Below are positions 4,081-58,637 of a stretch of 64,000 nt of DNA, one piece after another. Where the stretch lies: positions 1,593 to 65,592 of the forward strand of contig JBFMAF010000038.1 of NCBI GenBank assembly GCA_040755995.1, written 5' to 3'. Positions within the stretch are counted from its first letter, which is position 1; the number at the start of each line of letters is the position of its first letter. The notes below the pieces were generated by a model that saw nothing but the letters and a program-made list of their open reading frames with translations, ran no database searches and was not told where the DNA came from. The DNA is from Acidobacteriota bacterium. GTDB lineage: Bacteria; Acidobacteriota; CAIWXX01. Made by a program: the position numbers and the translations under genes.

Positions 4081-4149
4081 GCACGCACGTCCGGCTCGGG
4101 CGTCCATCCTCGTCACAAAGCCACCTGTACATGTGGCGACAACGCGCCT

Positions 4150-4218
4150 GAGCCGCGCGATCATTTCAGAGGATATCGACGAGGCAACCGACTCATCGTG
4201 AAGTGAGGAGGAAATACG
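4150..4218 (+). repeat. Conserved about 70-nt 5' leader/promoter-proximal segment shared with 7030-7093 (about 85% identity). It includes the RBS AGGAGG and is followed by the conserved N-terminus MRHKH.
   Basis: Direct comparison of the two upstream regions: tttcaga(g/c)gatatcgacgagg...atcgt(g/c)aagtgaggagga. Confidence 0.7.
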
Positions 4219-5928: not shown

Positions 5929-5976
5929 GACCGTGGCGGTGAAGCCAATCCCGATCGTCAAAATGGAGGTCAAGCA

Positions 5977-6888
5977 ATGAAACGATTGAGTCTCGGTGGA
6001 GGAATCGCGGTTGGATTCGTGCTCTCGCTGGCGCTCGGATCGCCGGCCATGGGAGCAGAGGAGAAAGGCGGCGGCTCTGTCCAAAGCCTGAACGGCCTGA
6101 AAGGCAAGCTGAACCTCGCGGGAGGTCTGGGCACATCGATCGCCAAAACCAATCGCAAGACCCTGACCATCACCGGCCTCACCTTCCCGTACTCGGCGCC
6201 GGTGTCCACGACTTTGCCTTCATTCCAGGTCACGAACAACGTCCCCGCCGGGCACTCTAGCATCGCCATCAAAGCCGAGGTCAAAGGCTACGGCACGGCC
6301 ATCGACGCCACCGACAACACGGGCCTGCCCTCCGGCTGCGCATTGCGTGCCTACTCTGGATGCGGTTACGCCCTCGACGCCTGGGGGAACGTTGGCGTCT
6401 ATGGGAACGTTGACCTCAGCGGCACTCTTTCCAAGGGCGCCGGCTCCTTCAAGATCGACCATCCGCTGGATCCGGAGAACAAGTATCTGTACCACTCTTT
6501 CGTCGAGTCGCCGGACATGATGAACATCTACAACGGCAACGCCGTCCTCGACGAGAACGGAGAGGCGACCATCGAGATGCCGGAGTGGTTTGGTGCGCTC
6601 AACCGGGATTTTCGGTATCAGCTCACGTGCATCGGCGGCTTCGCTCCGGTCTACATAGCCGAGAGGATGCATGGGAACCGTTTCAAGATCGCCGGGGGTC
6701 AAGCGGGCTTGGAGGTTTCCTGGCAGGTCACCGGCATCCGCAAGGATCCTTTCGCCAACGCGCACCGCATTCCGGTGGAAGAGGAAAAGCCGGATGAAGA
6801 GCGTGGGTATTACCTGCATCCTCGCGAGGCGGGGCAGCCGGAGGAGCTCGGGATCTTGTGGAGACAGCGATCTGACAGCGTGCGTTGA
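5977..6888 (+). CDS. Secreted protein (signal peptide MKRLSLGGGIAVGFVLSLALGSPAMG) with a conserved C-terminal domain carrying the motif DHPLDPENKYLYHSFVESPDMMNIYNGNAVLDENGEATIEMPEWFGALNRDFRYQLT. Family not resolved (reminiscent of tail-fibre/adhesin-like surface protein C-domains).
   Basis: 303-aa ORF with signal peptide and a good RBS (GGAGGTCAAGCAATG). Inserted between two SBBP paralogs. Confidence 0.55.
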   Translation: MKRLSLGGGIAVGFVLSLALGSPAMGAEEKGGGSVQSLNGLKGKLNLAGGLGTSIAKTNRKTLTITGLTFPYSAPVSTTLPSFQVTNNVPAGHSSIAIKAEVKGYGTAIDATDNTGLPSGCALRAYSGCGYALDAWGNVGVYGNVDLSGTLSKGAGSFKIDHPLDPENKYLYHSFVESPDMMNIYNGNAVLDENGEATIEMPEWFGALNRDFRYQLTCIGGFAPVYIAERMHGNRFKIAGGQAGLEVSWQVTGIRKDPFANAHRIPVEEEKPDEERGYYLHPREAGQPEELGILWRQRSDSVR

Positions 6889-7029
6889 TGACCGCGCAGT
6901 CCATGCAGGCTTGGATAGGGCATGCTCATCGCCGAGAAGCCGGGATTCCCTGCGCCGCTCTTTCCTCTCGCCGCACGGGTCTTCGTGATCACAGCGCGAA
7001 CGGTGCATGCGCCGCAGTGCGATTGAGTC

Positions 7030-7093
7030 TCCCGATCCTTTCAGACGATATCGACGAGGTAGCTGATTGATCGTCAAGTGAGGAGGACATCCG
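7030..7093 (+). repeat. Second copy of the conserved SBBP-gene 5' leader (see 4150-4218)
   Basis: About 85% identity to 4150-4218, including RBS and spacing to ATG. Confidence 0.7.
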
Positions 7094-8782
7094 ATGCGTC
7101 ACAAACACTCTCCCGTCCAAGAGAACGCTTGTGCAATGACCCGCATGGTCACCGCGGCCTGCGTGGTGCTTGGCCTTCTTGTGGCGGCGCCACCCGATGC
7201 GAGAGGCGATCCACCGGCGCGATCCGCTCGGGGCGCAGTGAATGGCCGCGCCAATCCCCACTCGCCCCTCGTGGCCGACGGCGAGCTCGTCTGGAACACC
7301 TTCCTGGGTGGAGCGGACTATGACGAAGTGTGGGCGATCGCAGTGGACAGTGCCGGATGCTCATACGTGGTGGGCAGATGCGGCGCTAGTTGGGGCTCCC
7401 CGGTCAGACCCTACACAGCGAGCCTGGATGGCTTCGTTGCGAAGATTGATGCGCACGGGGCACTGCTGTGGAACACCTTCCTGGGGGGTTCCAGCTATGA
7501 CTCGGTCAACAGGATCGCCCTGGACGGCGCCGGGAACGTATATGTAGTGGGCGACAGCCAGGCGACCTGGGGCCTGCCACTACGGCCATACACAGCCATG
7601 AGTGATGCCTTCGCGGCGAAGCTGACCCCGAGCGGTGCGCTCCTCTGGAGCACGTTCCTCGGCGGCTCCGCAAATGACGGCGGCTACGGGATCGCCGTGG
7701 ACAGTGCCGGGAGTCCCTGCGTGGCCGGCACGAGCGGCGCGGCTTGGGGCTCCCCGGTCAGGCCCTACACGGCGAACCAGGATGGCTTCGTTGCGAGACT
7801 CGATACCAACGGATCGATCTTGTGGAACAGCTTCATGGGCGGGGGCTCCTGGGAATCGTGCAGCCAGGTCGCATTGAATGGGAGTGGAGCTGCGTACGTC
7901 TTGGGCCAGAGCCCGGCGAGCTGGGGATCGCCCGTAAGACCGTACACCGGAGGCGACGACATGTTCGCGGCGGAACTGGATGCGGGCGGGTCACTCGTGT
8001 GGAACACGTTCCTCGGCGGAGGCGGGAGCGATAGAGCCGGCGACATCGCCGTGAACGCGGGCGGGGTGGTATCCCTTGTGGGAACAAGCGATGCCAGCTG
8101 GGGCTCGCCCGTCAGGCCGTACTCTGCGGACAAGGATGCCGTCGCAGTCAGATTGAACGCGGCGACCAGGGCGCTCGTCTGGAGCACGTTCCTCGGCGGA
8201 GGCGGAGATGACCGTGGATGGGGGATCGCACTGGATAGCGACGGGAACGCATACGTTGCCGGTCCCTCGGCAACTGCCTGGGGTACGCCGGTCAGACCAT
8301 ACAGCGGATACTACGACGCTGTCGCGACGAAGCTGGATGTGAACGGAGCGGTAGTGTGGAACTCGTTCCTCGGGAGCGTCGCAGTCGACGCCGGAACCGG
8401 CGTCGCCCTGAACGGCACTGGTGATGTCTACGTGGCAGGTCACAGCGAAGCCACGTGGGGTGCACCTGCCAGCCCCTACACGGGGAACACCGACGGGTTC
8501 GTCGCCAAGCTGGCGCATGTTCCTCCGGGTCCCACGATCACGCAGATCAAGTCCGAGAAAGCAACTCGCGGCAGCGCAGCGACGATCATCGGCACAGGCT
8601 TCTCCACGAAGAAGACCGACAACGTCGTCTACTTCGGCAAGAAGAAGGCCGACGTGAAGCGGGCGCGAACGACCCGGCTCCAGGTGACCATCCCGAACAA
8701 CTGCAAGAAGGGGAAGAACAACGTGTACGTCGTCGTCAAGAGCGTCAAGAGCAACGTCATGACATTCACAGTGAAGAAGTAG
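7094..8782 (+). CDS. Secreted SBBP beta-propeller-repeat protein with C-terminal IPT/TIG-like domain (paralog of 4219-5928)
   Basis: Same N-terminus (MRHKHSP...), same repeat architecture, and a near-identical C-terminal about 250-bp coding segment (8521-8779 vs 5675-5925). Confidence 0.75.
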   Translation: MRHKHSPVQENACAMTRMVTAACVVLGLLVAAPPDARGDPPARSARGAVNGRANPHSPLVADGELVWNTFLGGADYDEVWAIAVDSAGCSYVVGRCGASWGSPVRPYTASLDGFVAKIDAHGALLWNTFLGGSSYDSVNRIALDGAGNVYVVGDSQATWGLPLRPYTAMSDAFAAKLTPSGALLWSTFLGGSANDGGYGIAVDSAGSPCVAGTSGAAWGSPVRPYTANQDGFVARLDTNGSILWNSFMGGGSWESCSQVALNGSGAAYVLGQSPASWGSPVRPYTGGDDMFAAELDAGGSLVWNTFLGGGGSDRAGDIAVNAGGVVSLVGTSDASWGSPVRPYSADKDAVAVRLNAATRALVWSTFLGGGGDDRGWGIALDSDGNAYVAGPSATAWGTPVRPYSGYYDAVATKLDVNGAVVWNSFLGSVAVDAGTGVALNGTGDVYVAGHSEATWGAPASPYTGNTDGFVAKLAHVPPGPTITQIKSEKATRGSAATIIGTGFSTKKTDNVVYFGKKKADVKRARTTRLQVTIPNNCKKGKNNVYVVVKSVKSNVMTFTVKK

Positions 8783-8911
8783 GAGTGTGCCGGTGTGCAG
8801 GCAGCGGGGCTTCTTCGCGATGTGGGGCTCCGAACAGCAGATGGGTTGGATGAGCGCCCCGTGTGCCCGTCTGGTACAGCCGGGGACCTACCAACTCTGG
8901 GAGGAGATCCA

Positions 8912-10636
8912 GTGAGACGGAGACACGATCCCTCGTACCACGGTCTGCATCTAACATCCCGCGCGCTGCTCGGGGTGTGCATTGTGTTCGGGCTTTCGGT
9001 GGCGCCGCCACCCCATGCGAGAGGTGATCCACCGACACGACTCACTGCGGACCGCGACCTGTCCAGTCTAGACAAGGGCGTTCCGATTGAGGAGCAGGCG
9101 CCCGGCTCAGCCTCCGTTGTGGACGGCGAGCTCGTCTGGAAAACCGTCTTCGGCGGATCCGGCCACGGAAGTGCCGCCGCGATAGCGATCGACACTGCCC
9201 AGAACTCCATCGTGGTCGGCCAAAGCGAAGCCGGCTGGGGCTCGCCCGTCAGGCCGTACGTAGGAGACTGGGATGCATTCGTGGTGAAATTCGATGCCAA
9301 CGGGACTCTCGTCTGGAACACGTTCCTCGGTCACGTCATGATGGATACTGGGGAGGGAGTCGCAGTCGATCACGAGGGGAGTATCTATGTGGTGGGTTCG
9401 AGCCATGTCGGCTGGGGCTCTCCGGTCAGGCCCTTCACAGCAACAGACGCCCATTTTGAAGACGCGTTTGTTGCGAAGCTGGACGCCGACGGAAATCTCG
9501 TTTGGAACACCTTCCTAGGCGGTTACGAAAGAGATTATGGCCTGGGGATCGATGTGGACCTCTCGGGGCACGCGTGCGTGGTGGGCTGCAGCTACGGCGC
9601 TTGGGGCTCACCCGTCAGGCCGTTTGCGGTGGGGGCCGATGGATTCGTGGCGAGGCTCGAGGCAAACGGGGCACTGGCCTGGAGCACGTTCCTCGGGGGT
9701 CCGGGTCATACAGAGACTACTGGGATCGGACTGGATTTGGGCGGAGCAGCATACGTGGGAGGGTGGTCAGACTACACCTGGGGCGTGCCAGTCAGGCCAT
9801 TTGCGGACTCGTTCGATGCCTTCGCTGCGAAACTGGATGCCAGCGGGGCCCTCATCTGGAACACGTTTCTAGGTGGCACCAACATGGACACAGCGCGCGG
9901 GATCGCGGTGGGCAGCGGTGGAAATGCATATCTGCTGGGATCCAGCTTGTCTGGCTGGGGGACACCGGTGAGACCCTTCACACCGAATGACCCGAGCTGT
10001 ATGGGCTACCTGGATGCGTTCGCGGCGAAGCTGGATGCAGGTGGGGAGCTTGTGTGGAACACCTTCCTCGGCGGTGGTTGCGAAGATGGCGGGGACGGGA
10101 TCACACTCGACACCAGCCAGAACGCCTACGTTGCGGGCGTTTCCAGCAGCGGCTGGGGCTCGCCCATCAAGCCGTTCGGGGGGGATTACGACGGGTTTGT
10201 TGCGAAAGTGGATGCAGGTGGTGCGCTCGTCTGGAACACGTTCCTGGGCGGCACTTCTCACGACACCGCAAACGGCGTCGGCTCCGACGGCACCGGGGTC
10301 CTCTATGTGACCGGCAACTGTCCTGGCGACTGGGGGGGCCCCGGGGGTGAGATGTATCTCGCCAAGCTCGCGCATGCCCCCCCTGGCCCCACTATCACAC
10401 AGATCAAGTCGAAGAAGGCCGCCAAGGGCAGTCCCGCAACGCTTGTCGGCACGGGCTTCTCCACGACCAAAGCCGACAACGTCGTCTACTTCGGCAAGAA
10501 GAAGGCCGAGGTCAAGACCGCCAGGACGACGAGACTCAAGGTGAAGATCCCGAAGAACTGCAAGAAGGGAAAGAACAACGTGTACGCGGTCGTCAATGGC
10601 GTCAAGAGCAACGTCGTCACGTTCACGGTGAAGTAG
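8912..10636 (+). CDS. Third secreted SBBP-repeat / IPT-TIG paralog. GTG start at 8912 is preferred over the upstream ORF start at 8795.
   Basis: RBS GGGAGGAG 6 nt upstream of GTG. Hydrophobic N-terminus, SBBP repeats, and a C-terminal IPT-like domain that is about 85-90% identical at DNA level to the other two copies (10375-10633). Confidence 0.7.
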   Translation: MRRRHDPSYHGLHLTSRALLGVCIVFGLSVAPPPHARGDPPTRLTADRDLSSLDKGVPIEEQAPGSASVVDGELVWKTVFGGSGHGSAAAIAIDTAQNSIVVGQSEAGWGSPVRPYVGDWDAFVVKFDANGTLVWNTFLGHVMMDTGEGVAVDHEGSIYVVGSSHVGWGSPVRPFTATDAHFEDAFVAKLDADGNLVWNTFLGGYERDYGLGIDVDLSGHACVVGCSYGAWGSPVRPFAVGADGFVARLEANGALAWSTFLGGPGHTETTGIGLDLGGAAYVGGWSDYTWGVPVRPFADSFDAFAAKLDASGALIWNTFLGGTNMDTARGIAVGSGGNAYLLGSSLSGWGTPVRPFTPNDPSCMGYLDAFAAKLDAGGELVWNTFLGGGCEDGGDGITLDTSQNAYVAGVSSSGWGSPIKPFGGDYDGFVAKVDAGGALVWNTFLGGTSHDTANGVGSDGTGVLYVTGNCPGDWGGPGGEMYLAKLAHAPPGPTITQIKSKKAAKGSPATLVGTGFSTTKADNVVYFGKKKAEVKTARTTRLKVKIPKNCKKGKNNVYAVVNGVKSNVVTFTVK

Positions 10637-28527: not shown

Positions 28528-29370
28528 ATGAAGTGGAGAGATATTCGCGCCTGGATTGGCCATAGCCTTCCGTACCTGATCATGACAGCTCTCATCTTGC
28601 TCTTCGCCATCGTGTTCTTTGCGCCCCGGATATTCATCGTCGTTCACTCGGGCGAGGCCGGCGTCTTCTATCGTATGTTCCTCGGCGGCACCGTCACGGA
28701 CAGGGTGTATGGCGAGGGGCTCCACATCATATTCCCCTGGAATAAGATGTACGTGTACAACGTCCGGCTGCAGGAACGGGGCGATGAGCTCGATGTTCTG
28801 ACCAAGAACGGTCTCCGATTGCACCTCAAACTTTCAATCCGATTCTACCCGGAAAGAGACGTGATCGCAGTCCTCCATCAGAGGATCGGCCCTGACTACG
28901 TCGACAAGATCATCATCCCCAGCGTGGAATCGATCGTCCGGCAACGAGCGGGCGAGATGAGTGAGCAGGACGTCTACACGACACAGCACGCCTTCGTCCA
29001 GAGCCTCCTCGCGGAATCGTATGCGGATGTCGGCCAGAGCTATCTCAAGATACATGCCGTGATAGTCCGCGAGGTACGACTGCCGGAGCCGATCCAGAAG
29101 GCGATCGAGCAGAAGCTCGAACAGGAGCAGCTGGCGGCCGCGTATGTCTACAGGCTCGATCGTGAGTTGCAGGAAGCCAAGCGGAAAGCCATTGAAGCAG
29201 ACGGCTACAAGATGTACAACGATACCGTCAACTTGTCGTTGACGCCGGCGCTTCTCAAGTGGAAGGGCATCGAAGCCACCAAGGAGCTCGCTCAATCACC
29301 CAACACAAAGGTCATTGTCGTGGGGAATGGGGATCAAGGTTTGCCGGTTCTCCTCTCCGGCGAGAAGTAG
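28528..29370 (+). CDS. SPFH/band-7 (prohibitin/HflC-like) membrane protein
   Basis: N-terminal TM then 'VHSGEAGVFYRMFLGG...' SPFH core. Coiled-coil C-terminus. Confidence 0.8.
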   Translation: MKWRDIRAWIGHSLPYLIMTALILLFAIVFFAPRIFIVVHSGEAGVFYRMFLGGTVTDRVYGEGLHIIFPWNKMYVYNVRLQERGDELDVLTKNGLRLHLKLSIRFYPERDVIAVLHQRIGPDYVDKIIIPSVESIVRQRAGEMSEQDVYTTQHAFVQSLLAESYADVGQSYLKIHAVIVREVRLPEPIQKAIEQKLEQEQLAAAYVYRLDRELQEAKRKAIEADGYKMYNDTVNLSLTPALLKWKGIEATKELAQSPNTKVIVVGNGDQGLPVLLSGEK

Positions 29371-29634
29371 GCGCCGGGAGCGCGAACAAGCGCTTCGGTT
29401 TCTGGGGTCCTTCTTCGCCTCACTGCTCTTGTCGCCGGTCATCGGAGTCCCGCTTCTGCTTGCGGCCAGGGGCCCCCAATCCGAGCGTGAGCGGATCTCC
29501 CGGTCCACGGCCTCCCTTTGCCCCCGAAGTTGTTGCGCACCCGGCGTGAGCAACCGACTTGACTCTGTCCAGTCTCAGAGAATAGAGTCGAACTTGTCGG
29601 TGACTCATAATCCTCAGCCAATGGAGGTAACTCT

Positions 29635-30183
29635 ATGAGGAAGGAAGCAGCAAGACCTGTGGAGGGGGCCCCGGGGGAACCGAAACCCGAAACGCCAGCC
29701 GGGAGCAAGGCAACGGCATCGAGGGAAGCGCAGGCGCAACCGATCATCAACAAGTACATGATCGGATCGCTCGTAGCAGGGATCATCCCGGTCCCAATCG
29801 TGGACATCGCTGCCGTCACGGGCATCCAATTGAAGATGCTCCACTCGCTGTCGCGGCTCTACGAGCTCGAATTCAGGGAGAACGCCGGGAAGTTCGTCAT
29901 CGGATCTCTCGTTGGCGGCATCGGTTCGAGTGCGCTGGCGTGGGGGATGTTCGGCAGCCTGGTGAAGGCCATTCCCATCATCGGCCCTCTGGCGAGCCGC
30001 ATGACGATGCCCGTGCTGGCCGGCGCAAGCACCTACGCGCTCGGCAAGGTGTTCGTACAGCACTTCGAGATGGGAGGGACCTTCCTCAATTTCGACCCGT
30101 CGGCTGTTCGCGAACACTACGAGAAGCTCTTCAAGGAAGGGCAGCAGGTCGCCTCCGAGATGGCCAAGGAAGCCTCCGCCTAG
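29635..30183 (+). CDS. DUF697-like (YcjF-type core) membrane-associated protein
   Basis: 'IGSLVAGIIPVPIVDIAAVTGIQLKMLHSLSRLYELEF' and Gly-rich amphipathic segments. About 78% aa identity to the inverted paralog 36900-37487. Confidence 0.55.
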   Translation: MRKEAARPVEGAPGEPKPETPAGSKATASREAQAQPIINKYMIGSLVAGIIPVPIVDIAAVTGIQLKMLHSLSRLYELEFRENAGKFVIGSLVGGIGSSALAWGMFGSLVKAIPIIGPLASRMTMPVLAGASTYALGKVFVQHFEMGGTFLNFDPSAVREHYEKLFKEGQQVASEMAKEASA

Positions 30184-30261
30184 CTCACGGTTGACCCGCC
30201 GCGGGCCCATTGCCGGGGTCCGCCTTGACCCGAGGGGGTCGCAGTGACTAGGCGGTAAGAT

Positions 30262-30275
30262 CCTAATCGATTAGG
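30262..30275. promoter_or_regulatory. Perfect 14-bp palindrome CCTAATCGATTAGG. Identical core recurs at 36809-36822.
   Basis: Read from sequence. Sits about 80 nt after the DUF697-like gene and about 33 nt beyond the 3' end of the RND operon. Confidence 0.4.
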
Positions 30276-30306
30276 GCCATGAGGACTCCCGCCCTCAGCG
30301 ATCGGG

Positions 30307-36784: not shown

Positions 36785-36808
36785 TGCATTCCTCCTCTGG
36801 CTCAGGGC

Positions 36809-36822
36809 GCTAATCGATTAGG
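36809..36822. promoter_or_regulatory. Second copy of the palindrome (GCTAATCGATTAGG) about 25 nt upstream of the ArsR start codon. Candidate operator.
   Basis: Identical 12-bp core CTAATCGATTAG to 30263-30274. Shared flanking GGTAAG on the same relative side. Confidence 0.45.
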
Positions 36823-36899
36823 CCCTTACCATGGAGTGGCGAGATTCATTTCGTGTCGAAGCGGGCCGAGGAAACCGGCCCGCGCACTGCGGCAATGAG

Positions 36900-37487
36900 C
36901 TAAGCCGTCGTGTCCTTGCTCATTTCGGAAGCGACCTGTTGTCCTTCCTTGAACATCTTCGCGTAGTGTTCGCGGACAGCAGCCGGGTCGAAATTGAGGA
37001 ACGTGCCTCCCGCCTCGAAGTGTTGAACGAACACCTTCCCGAGAGCATAGGTGCTGGCCGCGGCCATGACGGGCATCGTCAGCGAGCCAGCCAGGGGGCC
37101 CAGGATTGGAATGGCCTTCACGAGGCTGCCGAATGTCCCCCACGCGAGCGTGCTTGATCCGAAACCGCAGACGAGAGATCCGATGATGGACTTCCCGAGG
37201 TTGTCCTTGAATTCGAAACCGTAGAGGCGCGAAAGCGAATGGAGCAACTTTAGCTGAACGCCGGTGATTGCGGCCACATCGACGAGTGGGGCCGGGATGA
37301 TCCCAGCTACCAGTGACCCCACCATGAACTTGTTAACGATTCTCTGGGCCTGCAACTCCTTTGTTTCCATGGCGCTTGGGCCGGTTGGCGTCTCCTGCTT
37401 CTGTTCCTCCGGGGCTCCCTCCAGTGGTTTCGTGGCTTCTTTCCTCATAGAGCTACCTCCAGTGGTTGAGGACAGCGAGATCTTCAT
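36900..37487 (-). CDS. DUF697-like protein, inverted paralog of 29635-30183 (start possibly at internal MRKEATKPLEG)
   Basis: About 78% identity over 150 aa to the + strand copy. Confidence 0.55.
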   Translation of the reverse strand: MKISLSSTTGGSSMRKEATKPLEGAPEEQKQETPTGPSAMETKELQAQRIVNKFMVGSLVAGIIPAPLVDVAAITGVQLKLLHSLSRLYGFEFKDNLGKSIIGSLVCGFGSSTLAWGTFGSLVKAIPILGPLAGSLTMPVMAAASTYALGKVFVQHFEAGGTFLNFDPAAVREHYAKMFKEGQQVASEMSKDTTA

Positions 37488-37731
37488 AGTTTCGAGTCTA
37501 ATCCCGGTGCATAAGGACTGTCAATCGTTTTCGTGGCGTTCCGACGCCTGCTCACCGTCGATCCTGCCCGCGCTCGAAGGAAGGCGGGCCGGCGGCGAGG
37601 AGGAGCAGGAGCCCGATGATCGGCGTGAGGAAAATTGAGGCAAAGAAATAACCCCAAAATCCGAATCGCTTGTTCATGCCCAACACCGCAATGGCGATGC
37701 TCGCTATGAGATACATGAGATAGAACATGCT

Positions 37732-38982
37732 TCAATCCCCTTCGTCGGGCTGCGTTGAATCGCGAAGGACGGCCGATTGAGTCTGGCTCTCGGGCTCCCA
37801 GGGCACTGTCCGGGTCTCGGAGCCGGGCACGATCTCGAAGTGCCCGCGTTTCACCACCTTGACGAAGATCTCCCGCCCGACGGGATCGCCATACGCGGTA
37901 AAGGACATGTCTTCGCCGACCCCATGGAAAGGGCCCTCGTGGTAGAGAGTCGTGGCCACGACGAGCGGCATCGTGGAGTGAGTCCTCTCGACAGCCTGTG
38001 CATATACCGAAACGGCCTCGTACCCGAGAGACGCGGCCAGGTCCGGGTAGTGTCCGAACCTCGTTCGGAATCGCCTGCTGAATCCCATTTCGAGGTCGCT
38101 GCCGCCCGCCGTCGGATCGAAGATCGTCGGAACGTATGTCCCATCCGCCGCTGCTCCGGCGAGCCGCCAGAGGTTGGGCGAATCAATTTCGTGGCCACCC
38201 ATCAACGGCTGCGTGATTCCCATCTGGCGCGCCTGCTTGATGACCTTGGCGGCGAGGGGAAGGCTGTCCAGGACGAGCATGGCGTCCATGTCGGTGCTGC
38301 GCGCATCCGCCAGGAGCGGGCGGAAGTCCCGGCACTCGGAACCATAGGAGCTGACGAACGAGGCCTTGATGCCTTCAGGATCCCCGAAGTAGAGGAACAT
38401 GGCTGCGTAAAGGCCCTTGTAGCCGTCTCGATTGAACAGAATCCCCACCTTCTTGAACCCTGCACGGGCGGCGAACAGCGCGAGGCACCTGCAGGATTCC
38501 TGGGCAGGCGGGATCACTCTGAGCACGTGTTGGAACCTGTGTGATGTGAGGCTGGGATCGGAAGCAAAGGGAGCGATGAACAGAATTCCAAAGTACTCGT
38601 ATGTCACGGACGCAGAGATCGCGGTCTCAGAGGCTACGTGCCCGATGACGGCCATGAACCGGGGCGTCCTGCCGATCTTTTCGGCGACGTCTGCGGAGGT
38701 ATCGGGGTTCTCCTCATTGAAGTAGGTCGGGACCAGCCGGCGCCCGCCGAAAATGCCCTTCACATTGACATCGTCTACGGCGAATTGAACCCCATCGAGA
38801 AAGTGAGTTTTGTCGGCGAACGGCCAGACGATCGCAATGTCGATCGGTCCGTCAGAGGTCTCTGCCCAATCGACGCGCATTTCCGCATAGCGCTGGTACA
38901 GATTGTTCTGGCCGTAGGAGTAGTAGCCGATGGCGGCGGCCACTGCGGCAAGGATCGCGAGCATCGGGGCCGTCCTTTTCAT
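37732..38982 (-). CDS. Periplasmic substrate-binding protein, Leu/Ile/Val-binding (Peripla_BP_6) family, without adjacent permease genes
   Basis: Signal peptide. 'IAVIGHVASETAISASVTYEYFGILFIAPFASDPSLT'. Confidence 0.65.
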   Translation of the reverse strand: MKRTAPMLAILAAVAAAIGYYSYGQNNLYQRYAEMRVDWAETSDGPIDIAIVWPFADKTHFLDGVQFAVDDVNVKGIFGGRRLVPTYFNEENPDTSADVAEKIGRTPRFMAVIGHVASETAISASVTYEYFGILFIAPFASDPSLTSHRFQHVLRVIPPAQESCRCLALFAARAGFKKVGILFNRDGYKGLYAAMFLYFGDPEGIKASFVSSYGSECRDFRPLLADARSTDMDAMLVLDSLPLAAKVIKQARQMGITQPLMGGHEIDSPNLWRLAGAAADGTYVPTIFDPTAGGSDLEMGFSRRFRTRFGHYPDLAASLGYEAVSVYAQAVERTHSTMPLVVATTLYHEGPFHGVGEDMSFTAYGDPVGREIFVKVVKRGHFEIVPGSETRTVPWEPESQTQSAVLRDSTQPDEGD

Positions 38983-39211
38983 TCTCCGCGCTCCCGTCGC
39001 CTACTTCTCGCCGGAGAGGAGAACCGGCAAGGCGTAGCACGCGAGATCATTTCGATTCATTTCACCAGATGGCCACCCCGATGTCAAGAGGAACGGAGAT
39101 TGATTCAGAGCGTCATTCGGATCAAGGGCTCCTGAGGATTGTGCCATCTCGAGCTCGACCCGGGTGGTGTTCCCGTGATCGAGCCCGAGATCGGCTACCT
39201 GACGCCCCGTC

Positions 39212-40261
39212 CTACCGATCCTTCTTGGGATCGTGCTTCCGATTCTCGGCGCCTTTGGGCGCGGCCTTCTGCTTCTTCACGGCCGGTTTCGAGGCCACGT
39301 TCGAAGGCTTGCCTCCGTGCTTCGCCTCTATCTTCGTCTGAGTCGGCGCCTGGGCCCGCTGTGGCTGCGTGGGCGTCCGCACTACGCCTTCGTGACCGCC
39401 GCCACGAGAGTCCACCCGAGGCTTGGCCGTCGCGGGGGCCGACTGGTGCATCGGTCGATGCTCAGGCTCGTCCTTGCGAGGCGCGGCTGACTTCTGCACC
39501 TTGTCGTGGTCGTCGGTTCGCCGTACGACCGGAGCCGATGCGGGCTTCCGCGCAATCATGGAAGCCTGCTTCAGCACGACCGCCTCGTGGGCCTGCGGAA
39601 CGACCATCTTGACACGACGGCCGTCGACCGCCATCTCACGCTGTTTGACGGACTGAACCGGAATCGATCGGCGGGTCACGCGTTCCATCACGTCTCGCCT
39701 CGGCGCCGACGAGGTGAACTGGACCGTCTTCCGCACCAACAGGTTCTGAACGACGGCCGGCTGGGCGCTGTACGCGCCGTAGTCGTTGTATGTGAACCGG
39801 TCCGCACCGACGAACACCCAGAGGCTCGCCCGAGCTGGGCTGTAGCCGTAGGCTCGTGCGACGTGGCTGGGGCACCAACCGACGTAGCCGTCGCCATACG
39901 ACCAGACTACATCGGCGGGCTGCCATTCATAGCCCGGAACCCAGACCCACCCAAACGCATCGGTGAAGACCCAGTCACCGTAGTGGTAGACGGACCAGCC
40001 CCACGGCTCGTTGGAAACCCAGGTAGGTCCGTACGAAGTGTACACCCAGTGGCCGTAGAGATACGGTCGCCATCCAACGCGCGTCGCCGCATACGGCCGC
40101 CAGCACCTTCCACGGGACGCCACTTCGAGCCAGGTGCCGTAAGGAGCCAGCGTCTCGTGGTAGCCGAACGAGAAACTGAAGGAGACGCCGGCTGGAGCCA
40201 GGCTCCCGCTGCCGAACAGCAGAGTCGACAGCGTCAGTAGAGTTGCGATCTTGAGTTTCAT
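39212..40261 (-). CDS. Secreted hypothetical protein with Trp/Tyr/Gly-rich repeats (WxPYxxGxWVxT...) and a Lys/Ala/Pro-rich basic tail
   Basis: Signal peptide MKLKIATLLTLSTLLFGSGSLA (start moved to this Met). Repetitive aromatic-rich core. Confidence 0.45.
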   Translation of the reverse strand: MKLKIATLLTLSTLLFGSGSLAPAGVSFSFSFGYHETLAPYGTWLEVASRGRCWRPYAATRVGWRPYLYGHWVYTSYGPTWVSNEPWGWSVYHYGDWVFTDAFGWVWVPGYEWQPADVVWSYGDGYVGWCPSHVARAYGYSPARASLWVFVGADRFTYNDYGAYSAQPAVVQNLLVRKTVQFTSSAPRRDVMERVTRRSIPVQSVKQREMAVDGRRVKMVVPQAHEAVVLKQASMIARKPASAPVVRRTDDHDKVQKSAAPRKDEPEHRPMHQSAPATAKPRVDSRGGGHEGVVRTPTQPQRAQAPTQTKIEAKHGGKPSNVASKPAVKKQKAAPKGAENRKHDPKKDR

Positions 40262-40554
40262 GTCTAAAACCTCCTCGTACACCGTTCAGTCATCAGGATG
40301 TGCAAGCGAGGTGCCAGGTCGACGGTGAGCGGCTTCAAGCACTTACCCGCCGCTCGCCACTTGACGCGGCGTCCTCTGTGAAGGACAGCAGCGGCTCGGG
40401 CCCATCTAACGGACAGAGAACACAGGCCGAGCCCCCGTCCAACGGTGGGGACAGTCGCTGCTGGATTTGCCACATCCTGCGTCGTGTCGCCGTACGTCCC
40501 GGCTCATGCCGGGGCGTCGCTGTGGGCCACATCACCGCTTCGATGCGCTGCGAA

Positions 40555-40587
40555 GTGAGCAGGGTCACAGCTGCGAGGGTTGAGCCT
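40555..40587 (+). repeat. 33-bp direct repeat GTGAGCAGGGTCACAGCTGCGAGGGTTGAGCCT (copy 1)
   Basis: 32/33 identical to 42295-42327. Confidence 0.85.
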
Positions 40588-41100
40588 CAAATCCGGGAGT
40601 CATTCATGCGCTCCAGGAATCTCACGAACGGTCCAAAACACTGCGGGCATCGTTCAATGACGACTGGATACTGACCTACATGCAGTATCAACGGTGCGTC
40701 CACCGTGTCTTTGTAGCGGTCCCCATGCGCTCCGAAGAGGTCCTCGACGACGCGTTTGGGAGGTTGATTGTGATCCTGGTCTTCGACTGGGACGGTCCAT
40801 GTGATCTTGAGCTGGTTCGTCTTTAGCCGCGTCTTCAGCGACTCATGTGCTGCCAAAACGAGCGCTTCAAGATCGTGCTTGAAGCAGAACACGCGGAATC
40901 GGCTTCTGAGTCGTTCATGAGGTTGAACGCTTTTCGATGACAAGGCTTCGTCGAACAGCCGCAGCACTCCTTCTCTATAATTCCTCGGGTGTGACGTGCG
41001 GGAACACCTTGTCGCGAGGGTAGAGATCAGGCAGCGCCACCACGACGGAATCCGGATCGTTCCTTAGGATGTTAACCGCCTTCACCGGGATTTTCTTTAG
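40587..41100 (-). pseudogene. Reading-frame-discontinuous remnant downstream of the ATPase. Ends 'VVIERCPQCFGPFVRFLE'. Tentatively DUF4276-like, as known partners of AAA_21 ATPases.
   Basis: Coding continuity 'FPHVTPEEL|YREGVLRLFDEAL' needs a 1-nt frame change near 40975. Family assignment is from memory only. Confidence 0.3.
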
Positions 41101-41810
41101 GAGATCTCGCTTGTTGTCTCCCCGACTGCGCATCGGGAAGAATTCGATCGCAACGCCCTCGGCTCTCTTGCGCGCGAGGAGATCGCTGAGTACAGGGTGA
41201 TCAGCTCCGGGTTGGTCACAGTGCTCAGTGCCAGTTGGTTTGGGCGCTTGAGGGCGATCTCCTGCTTCGTGAGTTTCTTCGACTTCGCATCCTGGATGAG
41301 CCCTTTTCGTTCTCCGATGTTCAGGAAGAGGTAAGGATTCTGATCACGAGGCCGAGCAGTCTGCACGCGTTCGAACGAGACATGGGTCCGACCGACCGGT
41401 CCCATGAGCTCCCCCTGATATCTCAGCGGGTACTGCTGATGGAAGTCCATGTCGAGACTCCACCAGAATCGCTCTGCGCCGGGAACGTGAAAGATCTGCT
41501 GCCCGATGGACCCGGCAACGATCTCGGGAGGGATATCCTGGTAGATACTGTCGCGGAGGAATTTCAGAAATTCGAAGAGACTGGATTTCCCCGAGCCGTT
41601 TGCCCCCACGAGGATCTCGAGCGGTGTGAGCTCAGCCTGGAAATCCCGGAAGGGTCGATACCCCTTGATCTTCAGGGACTTGATAGTCGGCTTGCTGCTC
41701 ATGTCTGTGCTCCCTGGGCGATCATGCCTCAAAATGCCGACTGATCGGCTGACCTTCGCTATCGCCAGCTGCGTCGGAATCGAGGACCACTCGAACTTCC
41801 CTTTCGTCAA
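41097..41810 (-). pseudogene. P-loop ATPase of the AAA_21/ABC-like (AbiEii/OLD/RecF-like) kind. N-terminal half only. C-terminal half displaced into another frame.
   Basis: 'IKSLKIKGYRPFRDFQAELTPLEILVGANGSGKSSLFEFL'. No Walker B/D-loop in frame. An 'HPVL'-containing continuation appears in the -1 frame. Confidence 0.45.
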
Positions 41811-42294
41811 CGCTTCCCAGTGCCCCCTGGCCTCCCTCGGTTGCCGTTCAACCAGCGCGCTCCAGGCAGTACGCCGCGGTCTCTACCATGGCAGTGTCCA
41901 GAACTCTGGATCGGCTCGGCAAGCCGAGAGGATTGGTTTCCACGAGACACGTGGCCACGGCTGGATCGTCCGACGACAGGGTCGTGATTTGTCGCGTCTC
42001 ATTCAGCAACGCTCCCCCTTCTGGAGACGAGTTGTGCACTTGAATGAAGTGGAGACAGCATCCATGATTGCACCTAACGGCGTTCTAGACCGCATCGAGA
42101 AGAATCACCAGCAACCGAGATCTTACTCTGAACGCCGCGAAGAGTCCACCGGGTTAGGTGGTCAGGCGGTCAGTTGAGCGCCTAAGCCGCGTCATCGCCA
42201 AGCGCCTCGGAGGTCCGCCAATCACGTATCGACGCGCTTGCGGTTGGCTACAGGATCGCGCCAATTGTAGCCGAAAAGGTCCGCTACAGCGGCT

Positions 42295-42327
42295 GTGAGC
42301 AGGGTCAGAGCTGCGAGGGTTGAGCCT
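42295..42327 (+). repeat. 33-bp direct repeat (copy 2) GTGAGCAGGGTCAGAGCTGCGAGGGTTGAGCCT
   Basis: See 40555-40587. Confidence 0.85.
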
Positions 42328-42469
42328 TGACGTCGGCAACTCGGGGCACTACCTTCGAGATTGCGAGAATGTTGGAGGCAACTCTCGCAGAGAAGAGGGA
42401 ACGTTGAGGTGATCGGCAGATGGACCCGCGGGCGTTATCGGGGTCAGGTGCCTCACGCTCCAGGTTACG

Positions 42470-44109
42470 ATGGAAAGGAGAAAGACGATGAGACGAGTTA
42501 GCACGATCGGTTCGATTCTTGCCGCGCTCGTACTGGCGGCAGGGGTCGTTGCCCAAGCTGCAACCCAGGAGCCCAGCAAGGGTACGCCGCTGGAGTCTGG
42601 GAACATCGTTGCGGTCAGCTACCTGTCCAAGACGAATACCACTCTTGATCTGGTAGGGACGGCACTCTCGCCGCGGTCGAGGGGCAAGGTGGAAGTGAAG
42701 ACACACGACGACAAGCCCACGGAGGTCAAGGGGGGAAATCGAGGGGTTGCAGAGTCCCTCTCGGTTCGGTCCAGAGTACCTCACGTATGTACTGTGGGCC
42801 GTCACGCCCAACGGACAAGCGAAGAACCTAGGCGAGCTGCGGCTCGACGGCGATGAAGCCGACATCGACACTTCACTCGAATTCCAATCGTTCGGGATCG
42901 TGGTAACGCCGGAGCCCTACTTCGCCGTGATGCTTCCCAGCGGCACTGTCGTCGCTGAGAACGTCCTCCGTCCGGATACGAAGGGCAAGGTGACAGCGGT
43001 TCGTTCAACCTATGAGCTGATGCCGCGTGGCAGCTACGCAGCTGCGACCCCGGCCGAAGGCTCGGCCGGGCCCGTAGGGAACCCGAAGGATCCGTTGGAC
43101 CTCAGACAGGCTCGCAACGCCCTGCACGTTGCGCAGCTGGCCCATGCCGACCGCTACGCTTCGGAGATCTATGCGAGGGCAAAGGAGCAGCTCAACACTG
43201 CCGAGACCTACTACTCGAAGGACGTCGACAAGAAGGCCATCAGCCAGCAAGCCCGCACCGCAGTCCAGACTGCGGAGGAGGCGCGGATGGTATCGACACG
43301 CCGCATGGCCGAGGAAAAGGAGGAGATGGCCAAGCAGGCGGCAATTCAGGCGGAGGCAAGACGGCGGCAGGTTGCCGAACAGGCCAGGCTGACGGCCGAG
43401 GAACAGAAGGTGGCCGCCCAGCGGAAGCAGGCAGCCGCGGAGGTCGCGAAGGCGGATGCCGAGATGCAGGCCAGGAAGGCGCAGCAGGAGCGTGAGGCGG
43501 CAGACAGGGCCAACCAAGGACGAGGCCCTCAGGGCCGAACGCGAGGCCCAGCTCCAGAAGCTTCAGGCTGAAACCGAGGCCGTCAGGGCCAAAGCGGCCG
43601 CAGACGAAGAGGCCCGCCAGCGCTTGAAGGCCGAAACAGAACGAGCTGAGCTGCGCGCGAAGCTGCTCAGACAATTCAATGAGATCCTGCCTACGCGCGA
43701 GACCGAGCGCAGCCTGGTCGTCAACATCGGTGACGTGCTCTTCGATTTCGACCGGCACTCGCTACGCGACGAGGCCCGAGAAAAGCTCGCGCGTTTCGCG
43801 GGGATACTGCTCAACTACCCCGATTTGAAGATCCGGTGCGAGGGGCACACGGACAGCATCGGAACGGCTGAGTACAACCAGGACCTATCGGAGAAGCGAG
43901 CTCAAGCCGCTGCCGACTACCTGAACACGCTCGGCGTGGACAGATCACGCCTCTACTATGAAGGCCTCGGAGAGAACGCGCCGATCGCGAGCAACGACAG
44001 CCGATTCGGCCGGCAGAAGAACCGCCGGGTCGAGATGATCGTCTCAGGAGAAGTCATCGGCGTACCGGTGTCGAGCTCCGGCAGCGCAGCCGGCGGGGCC
44101 ATGAGGTAG
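42470..44109 (+). pseudogene. OmpA-family protein (signal peptide, Ala/Glu/Gln/Arg-rich coiled coil, C-terminal OmpA peptidoglycan-binding domain) split over three frames
   Basis: Frames join as ...PTEVKG|EIEGLQSPSRFGPEYLTYVLWAV... across a GGGGGG run at 42730-42735, and again near 43505-43520. C-terminal 'LVVNIGDVLFDFDRHSL...EGHTDSIGTAEYNQDLSEKRAQAAADYL' is OmpA_C. Could be sequencing error or a real frameshift. Confidence 0.6.
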
Positions 44110-50250: not shown

Positions 50251-50304
50251 CTCTCTCGTGGCTCGGGGCGGTGCACGGGCTGAGTTTCGCGCCGCCCGAC
50301 ACGC

Positions 50305-53004
50305 TCACCGCGCTCCCTCGACGAGGAAGAGGTGTGAGATCGCTCTCTCGCAGACGTAGGCGTAGCTCTTCTCGTCGGCCGCGACGGCGACGTGGGCAAG
50401 CTGGATCACACCTCCGAGGTCGGCCGGCGCAAGTGTCCACACGAGCTCCCGCCGTCCGCTCTCGACGTCGACGCGCTCGACTCGGAGCGGGATCTCGCCC
50501 GACCGGTAGGCGAGCACCGAACGCCCGTTACGGGACCAGCGGATGGCCTTGTCCTCTGGCCCTGTGCCGGGAACAGAGCGCCCCTCCCCACCCGCCACGG
50601 GGTAGACCACGAATCCGCCCCCGATCGCGCTCACGAGGATCGAGCGTGCGTCCGGGGAGACGATGCCGTTCGTCATTCCGTCGGGCGTGACTTGTCGAGG
50701 CGTGTCCCCGGCGAAATGCTGCACGTAGCACCGTGTCGTGCCCCCCGCCTCGTGGCCACAGACAAGGGCGGCTCTCCCGTCCGGAAAGAACTTCGCCGAA
50801 TCGAACACGTCTATTCCGCCCCTGTCGAGCTGCCGCGCCTCCCCCGCTCCGGCCGGATAGAGCACGAGCTGCTGCGGCGAGGTCGGCACGACGGCGAGGA
50901 CCGACGTCCCGTCGGGAGAGAGGTCGAAGGAACTTCCGTCGCCAAGCCGGACGACGGGCGATCCGTCGGTGCCGCGGAGACACAAGGCGTACTGGGGCCC
51001 CACGCTCCCGTTCTGCTCGGTGAAGACGATCGTCTTGCCGTCTGTCGAGAGCGCGGGGAAGTACGAGGAATCGAGCCATTCGAGGCCGCGCTCGACTGAC
51101 TGGCCGGCACCCAGCACCGGCATCTCGGCCTGGATCTGATCGCGCGTCACGAGCCAACGGCCGTCGCGAGACGTGTCGCGGATCGTGAGGCTGCCGGCGG
51201 TCTCGATCGCGACGCGGACCCGGCCCGAGAGCGAGACGGCGTTCACGGCGAAGTCCGCGAACGAAGTGCCGCGCGAGAAGAGCACTTCTCCGCCGCCCGG
51301 CGTCCACGCCAGGCCTTCCACGCCCCAGTAGACCGGGGTCAAGATAGTCTTCCGGCCGGAGAGGTCCAGGACGGCGACGTTCCCCTGGTCGTCCCACTTG
51401 GCGCCGTGCTCGACGAAGGCGATGCGATCTCCGTGCGGGGAGAACCGAACGTCGCTGAAGTAGCCTCCCGTCTCGCACAAGACCTTGCCAATCGGGAACT
51501 CCAGCCGGTCCTTCCCACCGGCCTCGCGGATCACCGCCAGCCCGCCGCCGTCCGGCGACCAGTCCGCCTCGCGCACGTTCTCGAGCACGTCCCGCGGAGC
51601 GCCGCCTTCGAGCGGCATGCGCGCGAGTGTCCCGTGAAAGAGGTTGTGGCCAATGAACCGCGCCCGCGTCAGCACCGCCAGCTCACCCTTCGACGAGACG
51701 GCGAGCAGCTGCGCGCCGCGGAGCCCGATCGGCTTCGGGTCGGGGAAATCGGCGCGGACGGTGAAGAGCTCCGGCGTGTTTCCCTGCAAGGCCGCGCTGA
51801 AAACGATCGTGCGCCCGTCCGGAGTGGCGCGCGCGGCGAAGATCGCCTGCCGCCGCAGCGTGAGCTGCCTGTAAGAGACGGCGTGTGGCGCCCGCACCGC
51901 CCGCACCGTCGCGTAGACGGCTGCGGCCGCCACGGCCAGGAGCGCGACGACCGCGACCCGGAGCGCCCGGCGAGCCTGTGGTCTCCCGCTGGCCCTCGCG
52001 CTTCCCGCCGCGGACGACGAGACCGGCGAGAGCGCCTCCAGGTCGAAGGCCAGGTCGCGCGCTGACTGGAAGCGCTGCTCCGGCTGCTTCTCCAGGCAGT
52101 GGCGCACCACCCGATCGAGGCCCGGCGCGATCCCAGGGTTGGTGATGGAGAGGTCCGGCGGATCCTGTAGCAGGATCGCCGAGAGGCTGTCAGCGGCCGT
52201 CGCTCCGCGGAACGCCCTCCGGCCCGAAAGCATCTCGTAGAGCATCGCGCCGAAGGAGAAGATGTCGGTGCGGTGGTCCACGGTCTGGCCGCGCACCTGC
52301 TCGGGAGACATGTACCCCACGGTGCCCATCACCGTTCCCGGCTCGGTGGCCAGCCGTTCCGTGGGCGCGCTCGTTTCCTCCTCGCCGTGACGGCGCGCCG
52401 TCTTCGCGAGCCCGAAATCGAGGATTTTGACGTGCCCCTCCCGGGTGACTACGACGTTCTCGGGCTTCAGGTCGCGGTGGACTATCCCCTTCTCGTGCGC
52501 GGCCGCGAGGCCCTCGGCGATCTCGCACCCGTAGGCGAGGCACTTGCGTTGCGGAATCGGCCCGGCAGCCAGCGTCTCACGCAGCGTCTCGCCTTCCAGC
52601 AGCTCCGTGACCGCGTACGCGGTGCCGTCGTGTGTCCCGAAGTCGAAGATCGAAAGGATGTTCGGGTGCGAGAGCGCGGCCACCGCGCGCGCCTCGCGCT
52701 CGAAGCGGGCGAGGGCACCGGCGTCCTCGGCGAGCGATGCCGGCAGGACCTTGATCGCGACCTCGCGTTCCAGCTTCGTGTCGCGCGCTCTGTAGACCTC
52801 GCCCATCCCGCCCGCGCCGAGAGGGGCGACGATCTCGTAAGGCCCCAGTCGTGTACCTGGCTCGAGGCTCACCGCGCCCGCTCCGCCGGCAAGAGGTGCG
52901 AGATCGCTCTCGTGAAGGCGTAGAAGGGGCGCGTTCGCAGCGATTGGCTGTGGATCATCGCTAGTACGGCTTGAGGCGAAAAACACGTTGCGATTGAGTC
53001 GCAT
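50305..53004 (-). CDS. Ser/Thr protein kinase with TM segment and C-terminal TolB-like (PD40/WD40-like) beta-propeller
   Basis: '[14 protein letters not shown]', 'VAIKVL', 'HRDLKPENV', 'DFGLAK', '[10 protein letters not shown]'. Long C-terminal propeller repeats. Confidence 0.85.
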
Positions 53005-57989: not shown

Positions 57990-58637
57990 GTGAATGGAGC
58001 GGAGTTCATGAGCACAGAGGTCTCATTCGAAGACATAAAGCAGATGTTCCGGGAGACTGACCGGAAGTTCCAGGAGACCGACCGGAAGTTCCAGGAGACT
58101 GACCGGAAGTTTGAGCAGACTGACCGGAAGTTTAAGGAGACTGACCGGAAGTTTAAGGAGACTGACCGGAAGTTCCAGGAGACGGCGCAGAGGCTGCGCG
58201 AGGTCGGCGAACAGGTGGGCGGGCTGGGCAATCGTCTGGGCGAATTCGTCGAGGGGGTAGTGCGGCCGGGACTGGTTAGAATCTTCCGCGAACGCGGTAT
58301 CGATGTCATGGAGACGCACCGTGATCTGGAGGCCACGCGCCGAGGTCTGTCCGCGCAGATAGATATTCTTGTCGTGAACGACGCGGACGTGGTCGCGGTG
58401 GAAGTGAAGTCGAAGCTGCGGACCGAAGACGTGGACGAGCACATCGAGCGGCTGGGGAAGTTCCGTGCGCTCTTTCCGCGTTATGCGGATGCGAGATTGC
58501 TCGGAGCGCTGGCCGCGATGGTCGTAAGCGACGAGGCGCTCGCCTACGCGAGCCGGAAGGGCATGTTCGTGATAGGGCAGCGCGGAGATGCGGCTGCGAT
58601 TCTGAATCCGGAGGGATTCAAGCCGGCCGAATGGTGA
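57990..58637 (+). CDS. DUF3782-like PD-(D/E)xK-fold protein with an N-terminal array of ETDRKFQ heptads
   Basis: C-terminal 'DILVVNDADVVAVEVKS' (D...E.K). N-terminal repeats encoded by a 21-bp tandem array. Confidence 0.5.
   Translation: MNGAEFMSTEVSFEDIKQMFRETDRKFQETDRKFQETDRKFEQTDRKFKETDRKFKETDRKFQETAQRLREVGEQVGGLGNRLGEFVEGVVRPGLVRIFRERGIDVMETHRDLEATRRGLSAQIDILVVNDADVVAVEVKSKLRTEDVDEHIERLGKFRALFPRYADARLLGALAAMVVSDEALAYASRKGMFVIGQRGDAAAILNPEGFKPAEW
58054..58179 (+). repeat. Six tandem copies of a 21-bp unit GAGACTGACCGGAAGTTCCAG (0-4 mismatches), in frame, encoding (E/Q)TDRKF(Q/E/K)
   Basis: Counted directly in the sequence. Inside a CDS, so not a CRISPR array. Confidence 0.9.

Follow-up and report, generated by a model that had tools for sequence, protein, structure and literature searches.

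A pseudogenised HEC-01-like ATPase/TOPRIM remnant between 33-bp direct repeats in an Acidobacteriota genome

In a 64,000-nucleotide stretch of an Acidobacteriota bacterium (assembly GCA_040755995.1, contig JBFMAF010000038.1, positions 1,593 to 65,592; hereafter the window), two nearly identical 33-bp direct repeats enclose a 1.7-kb segment that encodes the beginning of an ATPase and pieces of a second protein. The locus raises the question of what this segment is, how it came to lie between the repeats, and whether it could still act as a small anti-phage module. We find that it is a pseudogenised remnant of a HEC-01-like pair (ABC ATPase plus TOPRIM-type protein), with a probable pglX tail, situated beside a decaying ompA-family gene. 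It is an ordinary genomic fossil and not a working or a new system.

Two broken genes between two copies of a 33-bp sequence

The repeat reads GTGAGCAGGGTCA(C/G)AGCTGCGAGGGTTGAGCCT on the plus strand, and its two copies lie exactly where they had been predicted, identical at 32 of 33 bases with the sole mismatch at position 14 (C/G). Copies of the 33-mer were counted within the window, in three public collections, and in the fetched loci (611 kb). On both strands of the window, no copy with up to three mismatches was found beyond the two known ones, 100 dinucleotide-preserving shuffles of the window gave no match, and the chance expectation for a second copy is about zero. The resemblance between the two copies breaks off abruptly at either edge, their flanks having nothing in common beyond the 33 nt, and the last base of the left copy is the third base of the stop codon of the second gene. 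The 33-mer is the top direct repeat of the local region; it does not count among the window's large repeat families, in which 177-nt coding repeats at 4-10 kb prevail. The repeats and the two gene remnants between them are as follows.

40555-40587, no strand assigned: left copy of the 33-bp repeat, with C at position 14, as in the orthologous locus L090 (see below)
40587-40985, minus strand: C-terminal remnant of the DUF4276/HEC-01B partner, residues 87-216, with the stop codon TGA at 40589-40587
40975-40978, minus strand: +1 frameshift within DUF4276, GAG GAA TTA T AGA, with the stop codon TAG at 40977-40975
40978-41193, minus strand: DUF4276/HEC-01B remnant, residues 19-89, in a frame unlike that of both neighbours
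41187-41193, minus strand: deletion junction, 7 nt GTACTCA, with about 704 nt missing relative to the intact locus L001
41187-41702, minus strand: HEC-01A-type ABC ATPase remnant, residues 1-172 of about 390
42295-42327, no strand assigned: right copy of the 33-bp repeat, with G at position 14, joining the native upstream region of the ompA-family gene

The minus-strand open reading frame (ORF) 41097-41810 carries a Walker A motif (GANGSGKS) and matches the Pfam families AAA_15 (43.6 bits), AAA_23, and AAA_21 (28.0 bits), in each case over only its first ~90 residues. These scores bear out the predicted N-terminus of an ABC/AAA_15/AAA_21-type ATPase on this strand. The best PADLOC model is HEC-01A (PDLC04182, E=8.1e-14, profile 2-179 of 406), and this match extends past the P-loop; the AriA, GajA, PtuA, and Old models match in the P-loop region only (AriA at residues 43-87). 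Against the NCBIfam model MADS3, the fragment scores 36.4 bits, far under the cut-off of 420.

A protein search with the N-terminal fragment led to an intact reference pair, locus L001, in which an uninterrupted 390-codon ATPase ORF is overlapped by a 216-codon DUF4276 gene, in the same order and strand arrangement as in the window. Both L001 proteins match their models over the full length, the ATPase HEC-01A (PDLC04175, E=1.2e-51, profile 4-352 of 363) and its partner HEC-01B (E=5.1e-12). Read from the sequence, the ATPase has an ABC signature (LSDG), a Walker B motif (ICIDEPD), and an H-loop (ATHS), and the DUF4276 protein begins with MMVIVYVEGPSD, which includes a VEG glutamate motif; this position in DUF4276 is the conserved TOPRIM glutamate (PMC12065111).

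The presence of a DUF4276 partner downstream of the ATPase was likewise supported. The ORF 40587-40967 reaches 35.7 bits against Pfam DUF4276 (gathering score 30.2; profile 89-192 of 192), its best PADLOC model is HEC-01B (PDLC04189, E=5.6e-5), and no Pfam match to DUF4435 was found in it. With HEC-01A and HEC-01B as the best models of the two remnants, the original prediction of a decayed two-gene defence-type module of an ATPase and a TOPRIM-like DUF4276 protein stands.

Comparison with the L001 proteins by tblastn resolved how the two genes were broken. ATPase residues 1-172 match from 41702 down to 41187 (73% identity), DUF4276 residues 19-89 match from 41193 down to 40978 in a second frame (46%), and DUF4276 residues 87-210 match from 40985 down to 40614 in a third frame (57%), giving an identity of ~55% for the partner as a whole. 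No frame of the window matches ATPase residues 173-390, and DUF4276 residue 19 starts directly after codon 172; hence one deletion, some 704 nt long, has brought ATPase codon 172 up against DUF4276 codon 19 in a different frame. It took ATPase residues 173-390, with the signature, Walker B motif, and H-loop, all absent from the window remnant, together with DUF4276 residues 1-18, which include the VEG motif. The C-terminal half of the ATPase had been thought readable by a change of frame; it has instead been deleted. Two frame changes had been placed at the right sites (~41187-41193 and 40975-40978), the first of which is the deletion junction, so that only the second, an extra base at 40976-40978 outside any homopolymer run, is a true frameshift, the sole one of the segment. 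Since the junction heptamer GTACTCA (41193-41187) reads homologously on both sides, as ..LYS in the ATPase and as VLS.. in DUF4276, deletion through this 7-nt microhomology is plausible.

Past codon 172, the open frame of the ATPase continues for 29 junk codons to a stop at 41097-41099. The resulting 201-residue stump, consisting of the Walker A region and 29 junk residues, is the longest product of the segment, and its public annotation (P0001) is labelled 'AAA family ATPase'. Both genes of the HEC-01-like pair are broken, the segment is a pseudogene remnant of a family member, and nothing functional can be made from it now.

The gene to the right of the segment is also broken. Its features were compared with the contig of P0195 (L090; 2,223 nt, assembly GCA_040960975.1), which carries an intact ortholog and 238 nt upstream of it.

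42328-42487, plus strand: native upstream region of the ompA-family gene, about 78% identical to L090, with TTGAC after the repeat in both
42488-44109, plus strand: ompA-family gene, ~539 aa, with two frameshifts relative to the intact, 81%-identical ortholog in L090

The ompA-family gene is read as three overlapping ORFs, and the phase of third-codon-position G+C switches near 42730 and at 43450-43520. A fusion of the three ORFs matches OmpA-family proteins of 510-610 aa end to end, the best being P0195 (81% identity over 100% of the query). The first break is an extra G in a G6 run at 42730-42735 (G5 in L090), and the second is a tandem duplication of CCAA at 43510-43517 (a single CCAA in L090). 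The G6-run indel is of a kind made by sequencing error; the CCAA duplication and the DUF4276 indel are not of that kind. Because three indels are concentrated within 3.5 kb while long ORFs elsewhere are intact (~42 kb of the window lie in unbroken ORFs of at least 300 codons), their clustering points to local decay and not to a generally error-prone assembly.

The same evidence bears on an artefact of sequencing or assembly, in which the real genome would hold an intact ATPase and DUF4276 pair and the breaks would be indel errors or result from chimerism or collapse in the assembly. The origin of the sequence from a metagenome-assembled genome and the G6 homopolymer next door fit such an artefact; however, ~704 nt of coding sequence are absent, which is beyond indel correction, and the two repeat copies agree exactly over 19 nt at most, which is not enough to mislead the assemblers in common use. 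Neither TTA-T-AGA nor the CCAA duplication is a homopolymer error, and the long ORFs of the window are intact, making an artefact very improbable.

A probable pglX relic and the relation to known systems

The segment is no self-contained two-gene cassette, as it also holds what is probably the end of a pglX gene, ~18 codons long, and 390 nt that match no family. The part of the insert upstream of the ATPase is composed as follows.

41703-41847, minus strand: spacer between the pglX relic and the ATPase start, featureless in Pfam and Rfam scans
41848-41904, minus strand: probable 3'-end relic of a pglX N-half gene (BREX-type methyltransferase), the last ~18 codons and the stop, ending in ..VLDTAMVETAAYCLERAG
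41905-42294, no strand assigned: remaining 390 nt of the insert, with no protein-family, RNA-family, or tRNA match

Window positions 41860-41912 align with positions 326-378 of locus L096 (blastn, 53 nt, 77%, E=5e-5; tblastx, 15 of 19), on the same strand as the ATPase in both loci, and this was the sole match in blastn and tblastx against all fetched loci. The L096 PglX N-half ends in ..VLDAAMVETAAYVLEAAS, which is identical at 14 of 17 residues to the end of the window ORF, and the stop codon comes next in both. The window ORF, of 78 residues, also matches the PADLOC PglX model PDLC02526 (profile 623-638 of 640, E=0.006); it was the only one of nine pieces to match, and the match is confined to its last 16-18 residues. 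From this alignment, we consider it likely that a split pglX N-half gene ended at 41848-41904. The 592-nt stretch that separates the right repeat from the start of the ATPase gave no Pfam, Rfam, or tRNA match, nor did six-frame pieces of 41690-42340 match Pfam at E<=10. A frameshift-tolerant comparison of 41905-42330 with the PglX C-terminal region of L096 did not rise above shuffled controls.

Locus L096 (1-10561; also L097) is a BREX-like island that contains a split PglX, small embedded genes, a HEC-01A remnant, a PIN protein, and BrxC. Its PglX N-half has 647 aa (PDLC02526, profile 514-639 of 640, E=7e-51) and its C-half 747 aa (E=5e-150), with three small genes, one encoding a DUF4258 protein, between the halves. 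Beyond PglX lie the HEC-01A remnant, which is cut by several deletions, a VapB-like gene, the PIN gene, and BrxC (E=5e-219). With the putative pglX tail included, what the repeats enclose appears to be a piece, or what is left, of a larger defence island and not a tidy two-gene cassette.

HEC-01 is a PADLOC candidate system composed of the ABC ATPase HEC-01A and the TOPRIM-like HEC-01B, and the study that defined it describes the genes of HEC systems as lying embedded within defence loci that contain methylases (Payne et al., bioRxiv 10.1101/2024.01.29.577857). Because the same study detected no protection by HEC-01 against the phages that it tested in E. coli, even the intact family is only a candidate defence system. 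The window resembles HEC-01 in the best matches of both remnants and in gene order and strand, and the methyltransferase or BREX-type association fits an 'embedded' origin; it differs in that both genes have been destroyed by the ~704-nt deletion and the frameshift. The DUF4276 domain belongs to the TOPRIM superfamily and has Mad4 as a homolog (PMC12065111), and the ATPase partially matches the MADS3/mad3 models. However, the L001 ATPase reaches only 101.8 bits against MADS3, for which the cut-off is 420, and the other mad genes are absent, indicating a relative and not a member of MADS, the methylation-associated defence system, whose ATPase is Mad3 and whose DUF4276 protein is Mad4. PARIS, Gabija, and OLD-family ATPases belong to the same AAA_15/21 tree (PMC11464382), and PARIS (AriA/AriB), Gabija, and OLD also pair an ABC ATPase with a TOPRIM-type nuclease. 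Unlike in those systems, the partner in the window is DUF4276 and not DUF4435 or TOPRIM_OLD, and the AriA, GajA, and Old models cover only the first ~45 residues of the window fragment.

Host origin of the repeat and candidate routes of insertion

The 1,707-bp insert (40588-42294) has a G+C content of 57.2% compared with 63.0% for the window, placing it in the lowest 1.7% of 1.7-kb windows, in support of its reading as an integrated segment. It lies between two divergent genes, a DUF6600 gene (39212-40282, minus strand) and the ompA-family gene (from 42488, plus strand), in a neighbourhood of housekeeping type with RND efflux, periplasmic binding protein, TPR, radical SAM, M28 peptidase, and Ser/Thr kinase genes. 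Searches of the plasmid and phage collections with the ATPase fragment gave only weak, distant matches. Neither the ORFs from 24.7 to 54.8 kb nor six-frame pieces of the insert showed a recombinase or transposase, and tRNA/tmRNA and Rfam scans yielded nothing relevant (gathering scores over the whole window, E<=1 on 40250-42500). A TTGAC-N17-TACnTT arrangement after the right repeat gave the impression of being conserved; a sigma-70 promoter scan of 40200-42550 passed no site.

The L090 contig informs on the origin of the 33-mer. Its upstream region aligns at ~78% with window positions 42293-42487 and holds GTGACTGAGATCACAGGTGCGAGGGCGGAGGCT in register upstream of the orthologous gene, matching the repeat at 24 of 33 positions and followed by TTGAC as in the window. 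This is the sole sequence within 10 mismatches of the 33-mer in the 611 kb of fetched loci. Where the insert starts, at the left edge of the right repeat, the window ceases to be homologous to L090. Because L090 has a 24/33 version at the same place, the 33-mer is native host intergenic sequence, with the right copy in its original context. Gene order differs between the L090 and window genomes exactly at the 33-mer site. Position 14 is C in both L090 and the left copy, in keeping with a C>G change that later befell the right copy or with a difference between attP and attB. Positions 1-44 of L090 contain a possible divergent ORF start (MRRSEATRLQR..) about 10 nt from the site.

The repeats had been predicted to be duplicated attachment or target sites. 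The target-like part of this proposal is favoured by the copy in L090; the attachment-site part finds no integrase, tRNA, or attC to go with it. An empty-site comparison had been suggested, and no empty site was recovered. In exact searches with N at position 14, the 33-mer had no match in GTDB species-representative genomes, JGI metagenomes, or IMG/VR, and its 17-nt core had no match in 89 fetched loci.

Taken with the gene content, these observations make it probable that the insert is the eroded remnant of horizontally acquired anti-phage DNA, which came to be bracketed by a duplicated native 33-mer and then decayed. Several points weigh against this explanation. There is no integrase or transposase in or near the segment, and around the homologous cassettes L001, L003, and L004 flanking repeats are absent. 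On the left of the L090 site, the 44 available nt match neither the left flank of the window nor the insert, leaving no demonstrable empty site. The search for an empty site through the right neighbour gave none (L090 has 238 nt upstream only, and L091 and L092 are not syntenic), and the search through the DUF6600 neighbour in genome, protein, and metagenome collections returned only distant, non-syntenic paralogs. The pglX relic amounts to only ~17 residues or 53 nt, the 390 nt at 41905-42294 match no family, one neighbouring frameshift lies in a G6 run, and the single-base indels are read from the assembly alone.

How the 33-mer was duplicated may be explained in several ways. A target duplication made by transposition is one possible mechanism, and 33 bp is unusually long for it. 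The conventional candidate, a more specific version of the explanation above with one defined mechanism, is an integrase-mediated islet in which the 33-mer would be the attL/attR core and a tyrosine or serine recombinase would have acted in trans or have been deleted since. Sharp-edged repeats of host sequence around GC-poor foreign DNA are what att-bounded genomic islands also show, att cores of 15-60 bp are common in islands, the segment shows other internal deletions, and the mismatch at position 14, with the C of L090 kept in the left copy, suits an attP/attB difference. In contrast to such islands, the insert is only 1.7 kb long, no recombinase is encoded in it or within ~15 kb, and no tRNA, tmRNA, or other RNA gene or usual target marks the site. 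No second instance of the site was found, and since none of the genome, metagenome, and viral collections contains the 33-mer, neither an attP nor another attB is known. In addition, the DUF4276 stop codon directly adjoins the left repeat, so that arm-type sites would have no space on that side. We therefore regard integrase-mediated insertion as doubtful.

The absence of a mobility gene among the ORFs from 24.7 to 54.8 kb and of flanking repeats at L001, L003, and L004 could also mean that the repeat is independent of any insertion, arising by local duplication, by a Campbell-type crossover at 33 bp of chance homology, or around an old, vertically inherited module. A length of 33 bp exceeds the minimum for RecA-dependent recombination. 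This possibility is unlikely, however, as the repeat edges coincide with the bounds of the GC-poor segment and with the loss of homology to L090, the neighbours are not defence genes, and a second copy is hardly expected by chance.

An integron gene cassette, with the 33-mer as part of an attC site after the ORF, was likewise considered. By eye, the stop codon on the coding strand is followed by GCTCAAC (RYYYAAC-like), with GTTGGAC (GTTRRRY-like) ~140 nt downstream. The R'' and R' sites are complementary at only five of seven positions, though, and their adjoining bases at none (also by eye), the repeat is 33 nt and not a whole attC, and there is no integron integrase or cassette array, the neighbours being ordinary genes in mixed orientation. 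For its non-complementary core sites and the missing integrase and array, an integron attC is rejected, and a cassette origin is next to inconceivable. A dif/Xer-type site was also rejected, the 33-mer being judged neither palindromic nor similar to dif consensus sequences.

Under the preferred explanation of acquired and eroded DNA, the donor would have been a BREX-type defence island with a HEC-01-like pair downstream of a split pglX, the segment being either a fragment of it or its last survivor. Insertion would have taken place in the divergent intergenic region between the DUF6600 and ompA-family genes, directly upstream of the conserved ompA-family upstream region, leaving the native 33-bp sequence on both sides through target duplication or recombination at the 33-mer. 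Decay may then have begun with the ~704-nt deletion, possibly via GTACTCA, that fused ATPase codon 172 to DUF4276 codon 19, followed by the +1 frameshift that broke the rest of DUF4276, and pglX would have been lost except for ~18 codons. By analogy with OLD, Gabija, and PARIS, the ABC ATPase of the ancestral pair may have sensed an infection cue and licensed a TOPRIM-type nuclease.

Break points across the HEC-01A family and other repeats of the window

The ATPase N-terminus relatives in the protein-search match list (P0001-P0074) are nearly all truncated. Several independent lineages break within reference codons ~169-179, and another cluster of end points lies at 109-118. The breaks within or near the first range are listed here.

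Window: deletion at ATPase codon 172
L096 and L097: deletions that follow codon 174
L093-L095: directly after codon ~174, a tyrosine recombinase and a Tn3-family transposase
P0011: internal deletion of residues 175-232
P0002, P0021, and P0043: break within codons ~169-179

In L093 (5001-9379), the cut after codon ~174 is followed by sequence starting with GGGG, a tyrosine recombinase gene, and a fragmented Tn3-family transposase; in L093-L095, a Tn3-family transposon looks to have inserted near the codon where the window deletion starts. Other kinds of damage occur in the family as well, such as the joining in frame of ATPase residues 1-92 with the C-terminus of DUF4276 (P0066) and one frameshift common to three lake samples (L003-L005). 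Because gene calling starts the intact L001 ORF at the internal Met100, intact genes are under-represented among N-terminal matches and the picture of break points is biased. We report the clustering as unexplained and not as a finding.

The window contains further repeats. An inverted duplication brackets the RND efflux operon (29341-30283 and 36801-39030) and includes DUF697 paralogs with 577-nt arms (29611-30187 and 36896-37472, 78% complementary), together with inverted pairs of 30 nt (30254-30283 and 36801-36830, 87%) and 49 nt (29341-29389 and 38982-39030, 94%); the right side also has a periplasmic-binding-protein gene, situated between the arms. At 4144-10636, three tandem paralogous large genes are built of 177-nt repeats (59 codons each; as many as 20 copies, 60-80% identical), and all three have a conserved 278-nt 3' end in common (5651-5928, 8502-8779, and 10359-10636). 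Seven tandem copies of a 21-nt unit at 58022-58204 form a heptad coding repeat (GACCGGAAGTTCCAGGAGACT-like), and the Ser/Thr kinase gene 50305-53004 (minus strand) has a copy of a 57-nt direct repeat close to each end (50303-50359 and 52867-52923, 79% identity).

As it stands, the locus matters little, being one more case of defence genes that were acquired, placed among housekeeping genes, and eroded. It is a clean, small case of such erosion, in which an exact deletion junction, a host-derived repeat, and a pglX tail that probably betrays the donor can all be read from the sequence, and the automatic label on the 201-aa stump is a warning for annotation. It is a remote speculation that the 33-bp site is a dedicated insertion point for integrase-less 'embedded' defence cassettes with a pglX tail and that codons ~169-179 are a site-specific recombination or insertion hotspot of HEC-01A; were it true, the insertion point and hotspot together would represent a route, so far unrecognised, for exchanging defence modules or switching them off. 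If either the 33-mer proved to be a reusable insertion site or the recurrent HEC-01A break point proved real, it would give insight into how small defence modules move or are inactivated.

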